Translations under genes and position numbers: made by a program
Shown here: positions 8,466-35,902 of the stretch, in pieces
Layout of the letters: each line of letters opens with the position of its first letter
Numbering within the stretch: position 1 is the stretch's first letter
NCBI GenBank assembly: GCA_029858305.1
Contig: JAOUFI010000002.1
Location: forward strand, 1-64,000
Reading direction: 5' to 3'
Origin: Candidatus Thorarchaeota archaeon
GTDB taxonomy: Archaea; Asgardarchaeota; Thorarchaeia; Thorarchaeales; Thorarchaeaceae
DNA length: 64,000 nucleotides
The notes under the pieces: generated by a model
What the model saw: the letters and a program-made list of their open reading frames with translations, nothing else
The model's database searches: none
Told to the model about the DNA's origin: nothing

Positions 8466-9419
8466 TTGACTGAGGACTTGGACTGGGAATTGGTGGTCAT
8501 AGGTGGTGGACCTGCAGGAATGACTGCGGCCATTTACGCCGCTCGCTACGGATTAAAGACATTACTCCTTGAATCCAAGGTATTAGGAGGAGCTCAAGCC
8601 ACAAGCCCTGGGATCGAGAATTATCCTGGATATACATTCATTGTTGGAATAGAACTTGCAACTAAGATGAAAGAGCAAGTAAGAAAATCAGGAGCAGTGA
8701 TTAAGGAAATCACAGACGTTCGAAGCATTCAGCGAGAGAGTAACAATGGAGATTTCCTCCTCGATACACGGAGAGGTGTCTATCGTGCCCAAGCTATTAT
8801 TATTGCTACAGGCGGAGGTCACAAACACCTAAATGTTCCTGGTGAGGAGATGCTCACGGGTCGGGGTGTTTCGTTCTGTGCGACTTGTGATGGTCCTCTA
8901 TTCCGAGATAAAACCGTAGCAGTTGTTGGTGGAGGAAATACAGCAGTCACGGAAGCCCTGTACCTGGCAGAGATCACAAAGAAAGTCTACCTTATTCATC
9001 GCCGAGATGAACTGCGAGCAGAAAAGATAGTGCAAGATTATCTGTTTAAATCAGATATTGAAATCATGTGGAATTCCGTAGTAAAGGAAATTAAAGGTGA
9101 AGACCTAGTAAACGAGATTATCCTTGAGAATACAAAAACTGGGGAAATACACTCATTAAAGATTGATGGCGCTTTTATTGCTCTAGGGTCAAATCCTGAG
9201 AGTACTCTTGCAAAGAGCATTGGCGTGGAAACAAATGAAAGAGGAGAGATTCTAGTAAGTGCAAAGCAGGCGACAAATATAGTCGGCGTCTTTGCAGCTG
9301 GAGATGTTGTGGAGTCTATGAAACAGATTGCAGTGGCAGTAGGACATGGAGCCATAGCAGCTGATTCTGCATACAGCTACATTAGACATATCCAAAGAGG
9401 TCCTATAGGGTATGCATAG
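8466..9419 (+). CDS. trxB: Thioredoxin-disulfide reductase
   Basis: GGGPAG, ENYPG, GVSFCATCDG redox motif, GGGNTA, HRR and FAAGD. Confidence 0.93.
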   Translation: MTEDLDWELVVIGGGPAGMTAAIYAARYGLKTLLLESKVLGGAQATSPGIENYPGYTFIVGIELATKMKEQVRKSGAVIKEITDVRSIQRESNNGDFLLDTRRGVYRAQAIIIATGGGHKHLNVPGEEMLTGRGVSFCATCDGPLFRDKTVAVVGGGNTAVTEALYLAEITKKVYLIHRRDELRAEKIVQDYLFKSDIEIMWNSVVKEIKGEDLVNEIILENTKTGEIHSLKIDGAFIALGSNPESTLAKSIGVETNERGEILVSAKQATNIVGVFAAGDVVESMKQIAVAVGHGAIAADSAYSYIRHIQRGPIGYA

Positions 9420-32892: not shown

Positions 32893-34233
32893 TCAGGCAA
32901 CAGCCTCAGCTTGAAGTAAACTCGTGATTTCTATTGGTTCTTCATTTTCTTTTGGTAGTTGAGAATGCAACTTGAGTTTAGCTACTGCTAGGAAGCCTAG
33001 TAATGAAACCACCACAAGGGCCGTAGCTGCAGCGATGAAAGGAGGACTAGTAGAACCGACAGCTTCAGCCCAAACTCCTCCAATCCCCATCCCAATGACT
33101 TGGACAGCTGTAAAGGCAACATTGAGAAGAGCAAACACACGACCACGAAGCTCGTCCTCAACCAGCTCTTGTATTAATACAGTGAGAGGGATGTTCAAGA
33201 TAACATCTACAGCACCAATCATTGCCCATGAAAGCAAAACAGTTACGAAGTCAAAAGCTAGAGCCATCGCAAAGACACCAATACCAGCTAGAAGTCCTGC
33301 AAATGCAATCAGATAGAGTGGCTTCTCGAGCTTCTTCTTCCTACTCAGGTAAATTGCTGCTATTGCTCCTGTTCCTGCTCCTGCACTCAGAAGAAAACCG
33401 ATTTGAGTTGATCCAAGTCCTAGTTCACCCTCAAAAAATGGCATTAATAGTGCATTAAGGATACCCGATGATACTGCTAGCATCATCGCAAACACAAAGA
33501 GAAATGAGAGGATTGCATTTCCTATGACATAACGACCACCCTGAATAATCTGTCCTCGTAATGACTCGTGTTCGATTTGATGTCTCTTGGGTCTAAGATC
33601 TGTGGCAATTCCATGAAGTGCAATAGCTGATAAAGCAAACGTCATTGATGTGACTGCAAAGGCTAGAAAATAATTGGGAGCAAGGAGCGCAACAAGAATA
33701 CCTCCGAGTGGCGGAACAACTAACTGAACAACTTGGAATGTCATCTGAGATAGAGAGTTGGCTGCAACTAATTCATCGCCCTCGACAAGATTAGGAATAG
33801 ATGCGCTCCTTGCTGGGAAGAACCATGCATTTGCGGTTGCATAGATAAATGTCAATATGTAAACCCAATAAATTGTGGGAATAAAGGATGGGAAGTAAAT
33901 TGTAAGTGGAATCATGAGGATAGCTATAGCTCTAACAATATCTGATACAATCATGATTTTCTTTCGATTCCAAAGATCAACATATACTCCAACAAAACCA
34001 GCGAATACAACGATAGGCAAAACTTCCATCATTGTTAGTATCGCCATTGCCAGAGCTGAACCGGTTAGGTCGTACGCATAGAACAAAAGCGCAAGGGCTG
34101 AAATTGCTGTGCCAATATTAGAAACAAATTGACCCGACCATAATCTTGAGAAATCTCGGTGACCAAGTACAGCACGAAATCCTATTGGTCGTTTTTCTCC
34201 ACTGACATCTTCAATAATTTGTGTTTCCATCAC
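32893..34233 (-). CDS. MFS exporter (DHA3/Mef/EntS-like)
   Basis: RDFSRLWSGQFVSNIG, GVYVDLWNRKKIMIVSD, PARSASIPNLV and ELRGRVF; about 12 TM segments. Confidence 0.9.
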   Translation of the reverse strand: MMETQIIEDVSGEKRPIGFRAVLGHRDFSRLWSGQFVSNIGTAISALALLFYAYDLTGSALAMAILTMMEVLPIVVFAGFVGVYVDLWNRKKIMIVSDIVRAIAILMIPLTIYFPSFIPTIYWVYILTFIYATANAWFFPARSASIPNLVEGDELVAANSLSQMTFQVVQLVVPPLGGILVALLAPNYFLAFAVTSMTFALSAIALHGIATDLRPKRHQIEHESLRGQIIQGGRYVIGNAILSFLFVFAMMLAVSSGILNALLMPFFEGELGLGSTQIGFLLSAGAGTGAIAAIYLSRKKKLEKPLYLIAFAGLLAGIGVFAMALAFDFVTVLLSWAMIGAVDVILNIPLTVLIQELVEDELRGRVFALLNVAFTAVQVIGMGIGGVWAEAVGSTSPPFIAAATALVVVSLLGFLAVAKLKLHSQLPKENEEPIEITSLLQAEAVA

Positions 34234-34238
34234 AAATA

Positions 34239-34337
34239 TTATCTCCTGAAATATGCCCAGGCAATCGCTTCAGTTGAGATTGTGGGCTTCGATTTGTTCA
34301 AGATGCGAGGAGTTGGATTGATGATTGTCGGGATCAT
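34239..34337 (-). CDS. Small peptide 4 (32 aa): MIPTIINPTPRILNKSKPTISTEAIAWAYFRR
   Basis: Manual translation, ATG to TAA. Shares the C-terminal motif with peptides 1 and 2. Its terminal AGGAGA forms an SD-like site for the MFS gene. Confidence 0.8.
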   Translation of the reverse strand: MIPTIINPTPRILNKSKPTISTEAIAWAYFRR

Positions 34338-34341
34338 ATTT

Positions 34342-34455
34342 TCAACTCCGAAATTGGATATTATTGAAAATGAAGGAGTCCTTCGATTGAACTTGGACTG
34401 ACCTGTTTTCCTTCGTGACGGAAAGAATGATTGAATTATTTGTTAGCTTCATCAT
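34342..34455 (-). CDS. Small peptide 3 (37 aa, divergent): MMKLTNNSIILSVTKENRSVQVQSKDSFIFNNIQFRS
   Basis: Manual translation. GAGATGTGA lies upstream. N-terminal MKLTNN resembles MALTTNN, and SKDSFIFNNIQFRS aligns without gaps to STDALTYAYLTFKR. Ends 4 nt before peptide 4. Confidence 0.6.
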   Translation of the reverse strand: MMKLTNNSIILSVTKENRSVQVQSKDSFIFNNIQFRS

Positions 34456-34603
34456 TGTTCACATCTCGTTATACGGTGGTCACAGGTAATGCGGTTTCTG
34501 AGACTAACTGACCATTCTTATGACCACTAGGTGACCATCGACTGACAAGGTCGGGATCAGAAAGGAGCCAGAAGGTCTGTCGCTCAGAGGTTATCAATAG
34601 GAT
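34456..34603 (-). promoter_or_regulatory. Structured/repeat-containing spacer between peptides 2 and 3
   Basis: Plus-strand TGAC(C/A)A at 34509, 34521, 34532 and 34543, with inverted TGGTCA at 34477. A minus-strand hairpin at 34565-34585 is followed by CUUUCU. Confidence 0.45.
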
Positions 34604-34705
34604 CTACCTCTTGAAAGTCAAGTAAGCATAGGTCAGAGCATCTGTTGAGAGAGTCTTGTTTTGCTTGTACTTCTGAAGGATTCGGTAGTTTGTTGCTAGA
34701 GCCAT
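34604..34705 (-). CDS. Small peptide 2 (33 aa): MALATNYRILQKYKQNKTLSTDALTYAYLTFKR
   Basis: Manual translation, ATG to TAG. AGGAGGT from the end of peptide 1 lies just upstream. Paralogous to peptide 1. Confidence 0.82.
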   Translation of the reverse strand: MALATNYRILQKYKQNKTLSTDALTYAYLTFKR

Positions 34706-34712
34706 AGTTGTT

Positions 34713-34814
34713 TTACCTCCTGTAGAGATATGCGTATGCTACAGCCTCGGTGGAGAGGGGATTGCGATCGTGCTTGTGCACGCGTTCAGTTCGGTTGTTA
34801 GTTGTCAGAGCCAT
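34713..34814 (-). CDS. Small peptide 1 (33 aa): MALTTNNRTERVHKHDRNPLSTEAVAYAYLYRR
   Basis: Manual translation, ATG to TAA, about 30 nt downstream of a TATA box. Confidence 0.82.
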   Translation of the reverse strand: MALTTNNRTERVHKHDRNPLSTEAVAYAYLYRR

Positions 34815-34844
34815 AATAGTTCACAAGAAATACTGCTCAGAATT

Positions 34845-34901
34845 AGTATATATAGCGAAGCCACTTCTGAGGGACACAAGATGAAGTCACAAGATGTGAC
34901 T
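34845..34901 (-). promoter_or_regulatory. TATA box for the peptide-MFS operon and an upstream palindrome
   Basis: Minus-strand CTATATATAC at about 34846-34855. AGTCAC-aagat-GTGACT inverted repeat at 34885-34901. CACAAGA occurs three times between 34822 and 34894. Confidence 0.55.
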
Positions 34902-34969
34902 ATCTCTAGAGCGCGCTAATATCTTCGGAGGTCATACTTTATACCGGATGATTCTGAGAGGATCTAGAA

Positions 34970-35470
34970 ATGAACGAGTATGCAGTGCTTGTTAAACTTC
35001 TAACAAGAACAGGAACACCCATTGGAGCAAGCATTGAGGACATGCTCGATGCCCTTGGGCTCCCCGAAGAGCCAGGGCGGCACATTCTTTTCAAAAAATT
35101 AAGCGGCCTTCATACTAGACTCAAACCTATCGGTCTGTACATCAAACATAATCCAGTATCAGGAGTCTTCTACCTTGATACTTTAAATGATGCTGCTATT
35201 GCCCATGAAAACACTGCGCTGCCTGATAGACTAGCTGCGACACTTCTCATTGTCATCACACTTGCATACCAAGAGGGAGGATGGGTCAGCATTGACAGAG
35301 TACGAGAGTTCAGAAAGAAGGCTTTGCAGGGCGTTATGGTAGACCTTCGCGAACTTCAAAATCAGGGCTATGTCGAGATTGAGCAGGATAAGAAGCGAGT
35401 TAGGCTTGGAACTAGAGTGCCTTTTGAGATCGATTATGAGGCATTCTTCAAGGAACTTACAGAGAATTAG
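34970..35470 (+). CDS. Tandem winged-helix KITE-like protein (Nse1/Nse3/ScpB superfamily)
   Basis: Two WH-sized halves, with L..LGL...L.PIGLYI, LAATLLIVITL and L.EL..QGYVE...RLGTR..FEI (similar to the MAGE/Nse1 G.R..E C-terminus). About 2 kb from smc-kleisin on the same strand. Confidence 0.6.
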   Translation: MNEYAVLVKLLTRTGTPIGASIEDMLDALGLPEEPGRHILFKKLSGLHTRLKPIGLYIKHNPVSGVFYLDTLNDAAIAHENTALPDRLAATLLIVITLAYQEGGWVSIDRVREFRKKALQGVMVDLRELQNQGYVEIEQDKKRVRLGTRVPFEIDYEAFFKELTEN

Positions 35471-35542
35471 AGCTTCATAAAAAAGATGGTGGCTTCGTTA
35501 GTTTTATCAGTAGTCAACAGCGACTCATAATTGGTTAGAATT

Positions 35543-35902
35543 ATGTCCCACAGGCGTTCACTTCGATTTTCACAGTCGACCTGCCCAGTATGCGGGGGCA
35601 AAGAAGTCGCTCGAGATGACCTAAAAGGAGACCTTCTTTGCACCAACTGCGGACATATTGTTACCCGAACTGAGTCAAGATCTGTTGGTAAGTTCGACAT
35701 AGCTCAGCATCTTAAAAGAAACGGAAAGATGACTTTCCCAAGACTAAAGGAAGTTACCGGAGCCTCTGATGACAAGCTCTTTGGTGTTCTCTCCGGTATG
35801 GAGAGCATGGATCTCGTCACACAGCTAGCTGGACAATATTCCTTGACAAAGAAAGGGCAAAGATGGTACCGTCAGAGACTGGGTCAAGAATGGGGATACT
35901 GA
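35543..35902 (+). CDS. TFIIB-type Zn ribbon plus winged-helix protein
   Basis: CPVCG...D...GDLLCTNCG followed by a WH ending YSLTKKG. Confidence 0.75.
   Translation: MSHRRSLRFSQSTCPVCGGKEVARDDLKGDLLCTNCGHIVTRTESRSVGKFDIAQHLKRNGKMTFPRLKEVTGASDDKLFGVLSGMESMDLVTQLAGQYSLTKKGQRWYRQRLGQEWGY

Follow-up and report, generated by a model that had tools for sequence, protein, structure and literature searches.

Does the gap ahead of a transporter gene in an Asgard archaeon conceal genes of its own, and what might the products of such genes do? The question is raised by the first 64,000 nucleotides (nt) of contig JAOUFI010000002.1 from a Candidatus Thorarchaeota archaeon (assembly GCA_029858305.1; this whole stretch is called the window below), in which four very short open reading frames (ORFs), P1 to P4, stand in series before a gene of the major facilitator superfamily (MFS). 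An initial annotation of the window proposed a hidden array of micro-peptides coupled to an MFS exporter. The ORFs are found here to belong to a family of cationic peptides whose amino acid sequence is under selection and which, as judged by profile searches, is restricted to the GTDB family of this genome. The tentatively preferred reading, which may well be right although it falls a little short of being probable, is that these are translated, family-restricted micro-genes whose products act in trans as microproteins of a dedicated regulon, and that the MFS gene is translationally coupled to them.

Four ORFs and the peptide family they represent

34713-34814, minus strand: P1, 33 amino acids (aa), canonical family member and first ORF of the cassette (profile E 5e-22)
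34604-34705, minus strand: P2, 33 aa, canonical family member (profile E 2e-18)
34342-34455, minus strand: P3, 37 aa, decayed family member whose frame is open, with its stop 4 nt before the P4 start
34239-34337, minus strand: P4, 32 aa, MFS-proximal family member (profile E 9e-20)
32893-34233, minus strand: MFS transporter, 446 aa, of the type with 12 transmembrane segments, DHA3/EntS/Mef group, starting 5 nt after the P4 stop

The coordinates and translations of the four ORFs (from the ORF listing of the window), their gaps of 7 nt (P1-P2), 4 nt (P3-P4) and 5 nt (P4 to the GTG start of the MFS gene, or 8 nt if the next ATG is taken as that start), and the synonymous codons quoted for the S-T-E/D segment were all reproduced as initially annotated. 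Their order is P1-P2, an operator-rich spacer, and then P3-P4-MFS. The last two codons of P1, AGG AGG (34716-34721), form a Shine-Dalgarno (SD)-like sequence for P2, and an SD-like CAGGAG for the MFS gene sits within the last codons of P4 (34243-34248). The motif that had been recognized in P1, P2 and P4 holds for these three as canonical members, to which P3 has to be added as a drifted member and not an unrelated ORF; at its position in other genomes the family C-terminal motif is retained, the copies of the window and of its closest relative (G007) have drifted but are still open, and a P3-like ORF also occurs in a paralogous cassette on contig C62 of the same genome. P2, for its part, is kept in the closest relative and absent from most other MFS loci. 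As far as sequence comparison can tell, such a set of ORFs is far beyond chance, because the profile of P1, P2 and P4 matches five further contigs and every genome of the genus.

Across 148 distinct members, the peptides are 26-36 aa long and cationic, with a net charge of +1 to +10 (median +5) and lysine plus arginine making up 20.7 % of residues; the open frames of the matches measure 30-67 aa and contain no internal stops. A conserved N-terminus, M-A-L-[AT]-[TK]-N, is followed by a basic, fast-evolving middle that is predicted to be disordered and by a conserved C-terminus, S-T-[DE]-A-[ILV]-x-[YHFW]-A-[YF]-x-[YF]-R-R, that is predicted to form an amphipathic helix. AlphaFold2, run on P1 with a 148-sequence alignment, places the helix at residues 22-32 behind a disordered N-terminal part, at a mean pLDDT of 70.6 and of 88 for the block 21-30. 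Cysteine occurs in 3 of the 148 members, and no cysteine pattern, signal peptide or membrane segment was seen; the longest run of A/I/L/M/F/V/W/C is five residues or fewer in 148/148 members, none of which has the hydrophobic membrane-type helix of small toxins or leaderless bacteriocins.

The family was not recognized by the initial annotation, nor is it by the databases: Pfam gave 0 families at E<=1 for P1-P4, NCBIfam 0 matches for P1 and P4, PADLOC 0 matches for the peptides, PHROGs a best E of only 0.05-0.17, Rfam 0 matches at E<=1 across positions 33900-35200 of the window, and the ESM Atlas no usable match to the peptides. Well-known short linear motifs, compared by eye (the PCNA-interacting box, the Atg8-interacting motif, the proteasome-docking C-terminal motif and the Glu/Tyr spacing of the PQQ precursor), misfit in spacing or fall on variable key positions, and were rejected because D and E interchange, the residue after the second aromatic is variable, and the penultimate Tyr is found in one subtype only. 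On contig C32 of the same genome, a 39-aa ORF just upstream of that locus's single family member (C32:28208-28327, locus L009) ends in T-L-D-S-L-Y-Y-E-Y, looks like a distant variant of the family helix and is conserved at the matching loci of other genomes; it may represent a diverged subfamily whose sequence lies beyond the reach of the profile.

Selection on the peptide sequence

Whether such short frames encode peptides can be judged from their codon use, for which 95 distinct members were analyzed. In the motif columns, entropy is about 0-0.6 bits at most first and second codon positions versus 1.5-1.9 bits at third positions; the invariant Ala (95/95 members) uses four codons (GCT 43, GCA 32, GCC 11, GCG 9), and the conserved Ser is coded by both TCN and AGY. 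Pooled ratios of nonsynonymous to synonymous differences (pN/pS) among orthologs are 0.22-0.36 for the N-terminal six codons, 0.26-0.36 for the C-terminal 13 codons, and 0.67-0.89 for the middle, where synonymous sites are near saturation; for the N-terminal residues of internal ORFs, pN/pS is 0.22 at pS 0.72. Similarly, a codon model fitted by maximum likelihood (ML) to 19 orthologs of the P4 type, which adjoin the MFS gene, gave an omega of 0.18 overall, 0.13 for the ends and 0.27 for the middle; 19/19 of these orthologs are exactly 32 aa long, with M1, R11, T22, A24, R31 and R32 invariant. No frame-breaking changes were seen in relatives. On this codon evidence selection acts on the peptide and not on the DNA, as had been supposed from the synonymous codons of P1, P2 and P4, since third positions are near-random, one Ala is written in four ways, and omega is 0.18.

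Alternatively, the ORFs might be non-coding, and their conservation might be that of DNA or RNA elements, for example operators or a structured 5' leader in the MFS transcript. Parts of the locus would fit: nucleotide-level conservation is seen in the promoter module and the P2-P3 spacer described below, synonymous divergence is low over the first six codons of promoter-proximal ORFs (pS 0.18), and the final Arg codon is nearly always AGG (36 of 40), which is the one clear nucleotide-level signal inside the ORFs. However, near-random third positions under conserved amino acids, a Ser that switches between TCN and AGY, and the low omega speak for a coding function, as does the retention of start, stop and length in hundreds of copies with no internal stops; Rfam, moreover, has no match. 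The codon data thus contradict a non-coding origin, which appears scarcely credible.

Distribution of the family

Searches were made with two profiles, A2 (an alignment of P1, P2 and P4) and A3 (14 members), and the genome counts given here are samples in which related genomes are not independent. The genome of the window holds 13 profile matches on six contigs; the copies outside the window contig lie on contigs C50, C205, C32, C155 and C62 (E 9e-22 to 5e-4, profile A2), in arrays of one to three such ORFs each. The C62 array mirrors the layout of the window: its first ORF is separated by an operator-rich spacer from two further members and the P3-like ORF, after which comes a different MFS_1 transporter (506 aa). 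With profile A3, all 28 genomes of the genus match, at 4-14 copies each, and in a sample of 301 genomes of the phylum the profile matches 69 of the 76 genomes of the same GTDB family and none of 224 genomes from 29 other families. The profile undercounts, because four of the seven negative genomes within the GTDB family (G154, G230, G251 and G254) carry drifted peptides before the MFS ortholog.

Beyond the phylum, a profile search of 1.84 billion representative proteins gave 49 matches at E<=1e-3, 45 of which are 29-103 aa long, while the four longer ones are unrelated repeats (18 of the 49 matches were inspected). A codon-degenerate scan for the C-terminal motif plus stop, a pattern that is biased against the MFS-proximal subtypes because their ends differ, was run over 185,579 prokaryote species and returned 51 stretches, all in archaeal metagenome-assembled genomes and none bacterial, labeled as Candidatus Thorarchaeota (39), 'uncultured archaeon' (8), 'Promethearchaeota archaeon' (2), 'Candidatus Hermodarchaeota archaeon' (1) and 'archaeon' (1). 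The profile confirmed 51/51 of these stretches, with 101 matches in total; on viral contigs, the motif scan found 0 stretches. Taken by these searches, the family is restricted to the GTDB family of this Thorarchaeota genome, and the motif and profile searches of Asgard genomes that had been proposed for it bear out its reality within that range. No description of it was found in the literature on Thorarchaeota, Asgard and archaeal small proteins and on Asgard ribosomally synthesized and post-translationally modified peptides (RiPPs), although small-ORF catalogues in supplementary data may list such ORFs without comment; an excerpt of PMC12144867 mentions Asgard RiPP clusters in general terms only.

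Linkage to the MFS gene

The MFS protein scores above the Pfam cut-offs of MFS_1 (130.7 bits; cut-off 33.4) and MFS_3 (100.1 bits; cut-off 27), and below the NCBIfam cut-offs of TIGR00900 (218 bits vs 319.6), EntS (89 vs 324) and Mef(A) (79 vs 675). Its sequence resembles the DHA3 group and is nameable as neither EntS nor Mef; of the earlier DHA3/Mef assignment, a general DHA3/Mef/EntS-like character is retained, the subfamily and equivalog cut-offs not being reached. Orthologs (E<=1e-40) are present in 42 of 80 sampled genomes of the GTDB family, across six genera. Within the genus, the last micro-ORF ends 5 nt before the MFS start in 16 of 21 MFS loci, while in genus g25 diverged peptides still precede the MFS gene, with the last ORF overlapping its start or ending 6 nt before it. 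Upstream of the MFS gene, the forms P1-P4, P1-spacer-P4, P1-spacer-P3-P4 and P1-P2-spacer-P3-P4 occur, the last in the window and its closest relative.

The linkage to this MFS clade is therefore conserved, with ORFs before orthologous MFS genes in several genera even where the motif has drifted. At eight paralogous or distant DHA3 loci, by comparison, no micro-ORF ends within 100 nt of the gene (0/8), which rules out such ORFs as a general DHA3 feature. The proposal of an array coupled to an MFS exporter accordingly stands for this locus, where the 5-nt spacing recurs in 16/21 cases, and falls as a specific trait of the peptides, which occupy about seven locus types, most of them without a transporter. 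Co-folding of the MFS protein with a P4-type peptide, on alignments built here, scored 0.00 and carries no weight either way. According to an excerpt of PMC10666635, coupling by termination and reinitiation requires genes that overlap or lie very close together, and hardly any of it is left at about 20 nt; because the 5-nt spacing is conserved across the genus, MFS translation most likely rides on that of P4.

The same arrangement may, alternatively, be read in cis, with the ORFs as serial leader or arrest peptides whose C-terminal motif would slow or arrest the ribosome near the stop codon in response to a ligand, to amino-acid supply or to a ribosome-targeting compound. The arrest would gate the next ORF and finally the MFS gene or, at cassettes that stand alone, a terminator hairpin overlapping the last ORF. 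This explanation is rather unlikely, but much of the anatomy agrees with it. The conserved residues lie in the last 13 codons, directly before the stop; the length of P4-type peptides is fixed, and the ribosomal exit tunnel holds about 26-36 aa, matching the peptide lengths; distances from stop to start are 4-7 nt, with the SD inside the last codons; and P3, without the motif in some lineages, nevertheless stays open and abuts P4, which suggests that translating P3 matters more than its sequence. In addition, the MFS protein belongs to the DHA3 group that includes Mef, and bacterial mef(E)/mel is controlled by attenuation, as stated in an excerpt of PMC4335068.

Against a role in cis, 5 nt between P4 and the MFS gene leave no space for alternative RNA structures, and the N-terminal residues of internal ORFs are under protein-level selection, although arrest peptides usually need no conserved N-terminus. 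Moreover, paralogous or distant DHA3 loci do not carry such ORFs, many cassettes have no co-directional downstream gene, as shown by the 23 of 51 pattern-found loci of types B and E treated below, and to our knowledge, which comes from no systematic search, no arrest peptide has been described in archaea. A bolder form of this explanation, in which serial tunnel-length peptides stall Asgard ribosomes at termination on a small molecule and so gate coupled ORFs that end in an efflux pump or a terminator hairpin, would be a lineage-specific nascent-chain device, and is unlikely. If true, no ribosome-arrest or attenuation system would have been described in archaea before it, and its hosts would belong to the lineage closest to eukaryotes.

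Probable promoters and operators of the cassettes

34886-34900, minus strand: palindromic operator GTCAC-N5-GTGAC at the upstream edge of the cassette promoter
34815-34885, minus strand: promoter cassette made up of the four elements that follow (promoter function suggested by the TATA box and position)
34871-34878, minus strand: TGTGNC half-site
34855-34864, minus strand: GTGGCTTCGC, just before the TATA box
34847-34854, minus strand: TATA box TATATATA
34815-34840, minus strand: conserved stretch reaching the ATG of P1
34456-34603, minus strand: operator-rich, promoter-like internal spacer between P2 and P3, conserved at the nucleotide level (putative promoter)
34532-34537, 34521-34526 and 34509-34514, minus strand: three direct TGGTCA repeats in the P2-P3 spacer
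34495-34503, minus strand: TCTCAGAAA in the P2-P3 spacer
34477-34484, minus strand: inverted TGTGACCA in the P2-P3 spacer
34468-34474, minus strand: TATA-like GTATAAC in the P2-P3 spacer

The TATA box that had been noted ahead of P1 is thus present as part of a larger unit. A promoter module of about 95 nt precedes the first ORF of most arrays and, compared between loci, genomes and genera, has changed less than the peptides. The palindromic operator lies within 120 nt of 49 of 146 distinct members; in six palindrome variants with GTAAC in one arm, the other arm carries no compensating change, which argues for a DNA site and against an RNA hairpin. In the genome of the window, the palindrome with a downstream TATA box occurs five times, four times before arrays and once before a bactofilin-like gene, and the operator types are nearly confined to peptide cassettes. 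The cluster of three TGGTCA repeats is found in this genome at the P2-P3 spacer only, and a perfect 8-1-8 palindrome followed by TTATATG only at the cassette promoters C155:21713-21729 and C62:10972-10988. A scan with a sigma-70-type model gave fewer promoter sites than shuffled sequences, the model being bacterial and not applicable to archaea.

Conservation of the P2-P3 spacer among 11 aligned loci is contiguous at the nucleotide level and has no codon periodicity. The 42-aa ORF with a TTG start that lies in it (34469-34597) was consequently rejected as a fifth peptide and is probably not coding, and the spacer would serve as a second, internal promoter with operators. The window cassette with its first ORF is identical to that on contig C50 at 193 of 202 nt and to that on C205 at 158 of 206 nt. 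For window positions 34713-34914 and the C50 cassette, likeness within a genome (193 and 190 of 202 nt) exceeds that of orthologs between this genome and its closest relative (185 and 186), which hints at gene conversion between the cassettes of the MFS locus and of C50.

From the several TGTGAC-type sites that the conserved promoter modules hold, we infer a dedicated regulon controlled by a repressor. The cassette operator may resemble the TrmB-type site of Thermococcales. On contig C101 (C101:38916-39005, locus L141), a bactofilin-domain gene (Pfam Bactofilin, E 1.6e-11) is headed by an operator of this kind, GTNAC-N5-GTGAC with a TGTGAC site, together with a TATA box. The gene immediately before the bactofilin-domain gene encodes a 112-aa winged-helix protein of the HTH_45 type, which is a candidate regulator of the cassette promoters. 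If the peptides were signals and the operator-binding factor their receptor, the cassettes may even constitute a self-regulated form of peptide signaling.

Cassettes at other loci and their ends

Cassettes carry one to four ORFs in polycistronic layout and occupy five to eight loci per genome, in about seven locus types whose positions are syntenic across genera. Two cassettes are followed by two different MFS genes. In the other contexts, a cassette has a desulfoferrodoxin gene nearby and faces the gene for a 200-aa zinc-ribbon protein; is flanked by an HTH_20 gene and a convergent gene for a UbiE-type methyltransferase; follows the gene for a 139-aa membrane protein and precedes a hemerythrin gene; follows a PolX-like gene (so named by eye, not by Pfam); or precedes a 110-aa gene. 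The 51 pattern-found loci divide into type E (13), B (10), C (4), G (4), A (2-3), D (1) and unclassified (17). Types B and E (23/51) face a convergent gene behind a terminator, and only 6-7 of the 51 adjoin an MFS gene; a co-directional gene lies within 500 nt downstream at four of the seven locus types.

Within cassettes, the distance from stop to ATG is 4-7 nt, and an SD-like sequence stands upstream of 57/57 internal ORFs versus 19/89 first ORFs, the internal SD being made of the final Arg codons and the stop codon of the preceding ORF. The C-terminal 'RR' is thus partly an SD for the next ORF and not a pure peptide signal. At types B and E, the distance from stop to ATG is constantly 6 nt, and 19 of 21 loci have three successive ORFs in the same frame. 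A hairpin with a T-tract, itself conserved, closes the stand-alone cassettes in 21/21 loci. The terminator scan found no terminator-like site between P4 and the MFS gene.

The third ORF of types B and E differs from the peptides before it. It is acidic, encodes 35-40 aa and follows two basic peptides in the same frame, at stop plus 6 nt, in 21 loci; two copies are located in the genome of the window.

L007:1705-1809 (contig C205), plus strand: acidic third ORF
L010:1573-1692 (contig C155), plus strand: acidic third ORF

In 21/21 loci, its C-terminal codons form the 5' arm and loop of the hairpin, the stop codon lies in the 3' arm and the T-tract comes next; the predicted minimum free energy of the hairpin is -18 to -29 kcal/mol in all 21, with some G-C to A-U double changes and with no shuffle control behind these values. 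The hairpin resembles a terminator, one that ribosomes translating the last ORF would open, and this attenuator geometry again accords with peptides acting in cis. Two database proteins of 70 aa, P0023 and P0042, join a b-type peptide in frame to the acidic third ORF, a sense codon taking the place of the stop; they agree with the constant in-frame spacing and suggest that the acidic ORF is read.

The pairing of basic and acidic ORFs also brings to mind modules of toxin and antidote, in which the basic a/b-type peptides would inhibit growth and the acidic ORF of two locus types, or the MFS protein in the window, would neutralize or remove them. Besides the conserved acidic ORF after basic peptides in one operon at 21 loci, the several operator sites per promoter, which would mean tight control, and the slightly greater likeness of copies within a genome than of orthologs could be expected of such modules. 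The peptides, however, lack the hydrophobic helix of known small toxins, PADLOC has no match, the cassettes are syntenic across genera and not mobile, the C-terminal conservation of the acidic ORF is at least partly due to the terminator hairpin, and the window cassette has no acidic ORF; the explanation is very improbable.

Among the neighboring genes, the following two lie beside the window cassette.

34970-35470, plus strand: divergent gene beside the cassette, 166 aa, with no Pfam, NCBIfam or PDB match, its position kept in 14 loci
35531-35902, plus strand: next gene, 123 aa, with below-cut-off matches to a TFIIB-type zinc ribbon (27.1 bits vs 29) and a winged helix

ScpB, considered for the 166-aa protein, found no support (best E 0.3 in a PDB sequence search). 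At loci of the C155 type, the cassette has a divergent HTH_20 gene about 256 nt upstream (18 loci), whose product is a further candidate regulator. On contig C50, the interval from the array to the hemerythrin gene contains a stretch (about 9030-9145, minus strand; L004, about 1880-1995) that appears by eye to be tRNA-like, possibly with an intron; neither ARAGORN nor Rfam reported it, and both gave no matches at four cassette loci outside the window.

Search for a maturase

Conserved flanks around a variable core raise the possibility that the peptides are secreted and bioactive, either pheromone- or bacteriocin-like or RiPP precursors, with the conserved ends serving recognition, the hypervariable middle as the core, the two linked MFS proteins as exporters or immunity pumps, and a maturase, if any, encoded elsewhere. 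Such a role would be in keeping with the fast-evolving middle (pN/pS 0.67-0.89), with the many paralogs per genome, with the tight control that several operator sites per promoter would imply, and with two different MFS genes after two different cassettes. The genome also encodes one protein of a peptide-maturing kind, with an RRE (PqqD), a radical-SAM and a SPASM domain.

C163:5063-6526 (L139), minus strand: PqqD(RRE)-radical-SAM-SPASM protein, the only one in the genome

Neither this protein nor the single further radical-SAM-SPASM protein of the genome is encoded near a cassette. When the 476 proteins encoded within 3.5 kb of arrays were clustered, the 28 largest clusters, only some of them annotated by Pfam, contained no radical-SAM protein, YcaO, lanthipeptide synthetase, P450, protease or ABC exporter. 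The C163 protein is 70-91 % identical across the GTDB family, with no small ORF of the peptide family adjoining its gene, and occurs in 58 of the 76 genomes; 16 genomes that have the peptides, several of them over 90 % complete, lack this protein, and its relatives (31-45 % identity) occur in 83 of the 224 genomes of other families, where the peptide profile matches none. Co-occurrence with a remote maturase was thus not found for this enzyme, the single candidate profiled, and the linkage to radical-SAM, P450 or protease genes that the initial annotation envisaged finds no support among neighbors within 3.5 kb.

The peptides themselves fit secretion poorly, given their near lack of Cys, the absence of a signal peptide and hydrophobic stretches of five residues at most. 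The middle of P4-type peptides is still under purifying selection once corrected by ML (omega 0.27), most cassettes have no transporter, and export of a hydrophilic, highly basic 3.5-kDa peptide by an MFS protein with 12 transmembrane segments would be unusual. Secretion is therefore an improbable explanation.

Weighing the preferred reading

In the preferred reading, the peptides would be the primary products of the cassettes and act in trans. A dedicated repressor would act at the TGTGAC-type operator sites of the cassette promoters, the C-terminal amphipathic helix would dock on a conserved partner, and the MFS protein would be one co-induced output of the same response, its translation coupled to that of P4. 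That the peptides are the primary products is suggested because identical cassettes stand alone with their own terminator, and action in trans is favored because the peptide sequence is conserved in all contexts and many cassettes are self-contained. Of the overall interpretation first put forward, the real, conserved and protein-selected ORFs remain, whereas specificity for the MFS gene and a linked maturase do not.

Several points weigh against this reading. The case for translation of the ORFs is an evolutionary one, and the partner of the helix is postulated. At +5 nt, P4 and the MFS gene do not overlap, and an MFS gene with its own SD could also initiate independently. Because the final Arg codon is AGG in 36/40 cases, part of the 'RR' conservation belongs to the nucleotide level. 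The fixed 32 aa of the 19 P4-type orthologs and the conserved state of both ends, the C-terminal one immediately ahead of the stop, would also suit a nascent chain in the ribosome tunnel, and at four of seven locus types a role in cis is possible because a co-directional gene lies within 500 nt.

Archaeal small proteins are poorly known, and none has been characterized in Asgard archaea as far as the literature was checked. The present family was mostly missed by gene callers despite several marks of function, namely purifying selection, fixed length, multiple copies, dedicated operators and a link to an efflux-type transporter; it thereby offers a testable entry to gene regulation, translational coupling or arrest, and small-protein biology in uncultured relatives of the eukaryotic ancestor. 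Intergenic 'gaps' of these genomes can hold conserved coding capacity, and the logic of an SD placed in the last Arg codons could reveal other hidden families of micro-ORFs.

Comparison with known systems

Prochlorosin-type RiPP families, whose maturase is encoded remotely, likewise comprise many paralogous short precursors scattered over several loci, each combining conserved regions for recognition with a variable one. Their precursors are, however, about three times as long as the present peptides, for which no maturase is linked or co-distributed, Cys is almost absent, and the conserved region is C-terminal and very short. The Rgg/SHP and PlcR/PapR pheromones of Firmicutes, short peptides made in the cytoplasm and encoded beside their regulators, have a parallel in the small ORFs beside a divergent helix-turn-helix gene at one locus type (HTH_20 at about -256 nt, 18 loci) and in the operators of the promoters. 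Those pheromones are hydrophobic and processed, whereas the peptides here are hydrophilic and strongly basic, a regulator is not adjacent to most cassettes, and neither a processing protease nor an ABC exporter was found among the neighbors within 3.5 kb.

Leader-peptide control of the macrolide efflux and resistance genes mef/mel(msrD) and erm in Gram-positive bacteria offers a closer parallel, a leader peptide being involved in the attenuation of mef/mel. Here, too, a short co-oriented ORF lies immediately upstream of an MFS gene of the DHA3/Mef group, in the window and at 16 of 21 MFS loci, and control by translation of the leader is plausible. The systems differ in that two to four ORFs stand in series, in that 5 nt leave no room for an attenuator hairpin (the terminator scan and Rfam found no alternative RNA structure between P4 and the MFS gene), and in that the same peptides occur at loci without a regulated downstream gene, so that they are not confined to a position in cis to regulated genes (23/51 loci face a convergent gene). 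Moreover, the host is an archaeon.

Operons of archaea and bacteria that rely on termination and reinitiation (PMC6728339, PMC10666635) provide a further point of reference. In the excerpt of PMC10666635, overlaps of 4 or 1 nt are the most frequent arrangement of coupled genes, and genes for subunits of complexes are enriched among such pairs, whereas here the distances are +4 to +7 nt, the upstream partners are peptides of some 30 residues, and coupling is predicted from the sequence; the two arrangements are nonetheless alike in their co-directional ORFs, their very short distances and an SD placed inside the end of the upstream ORF.

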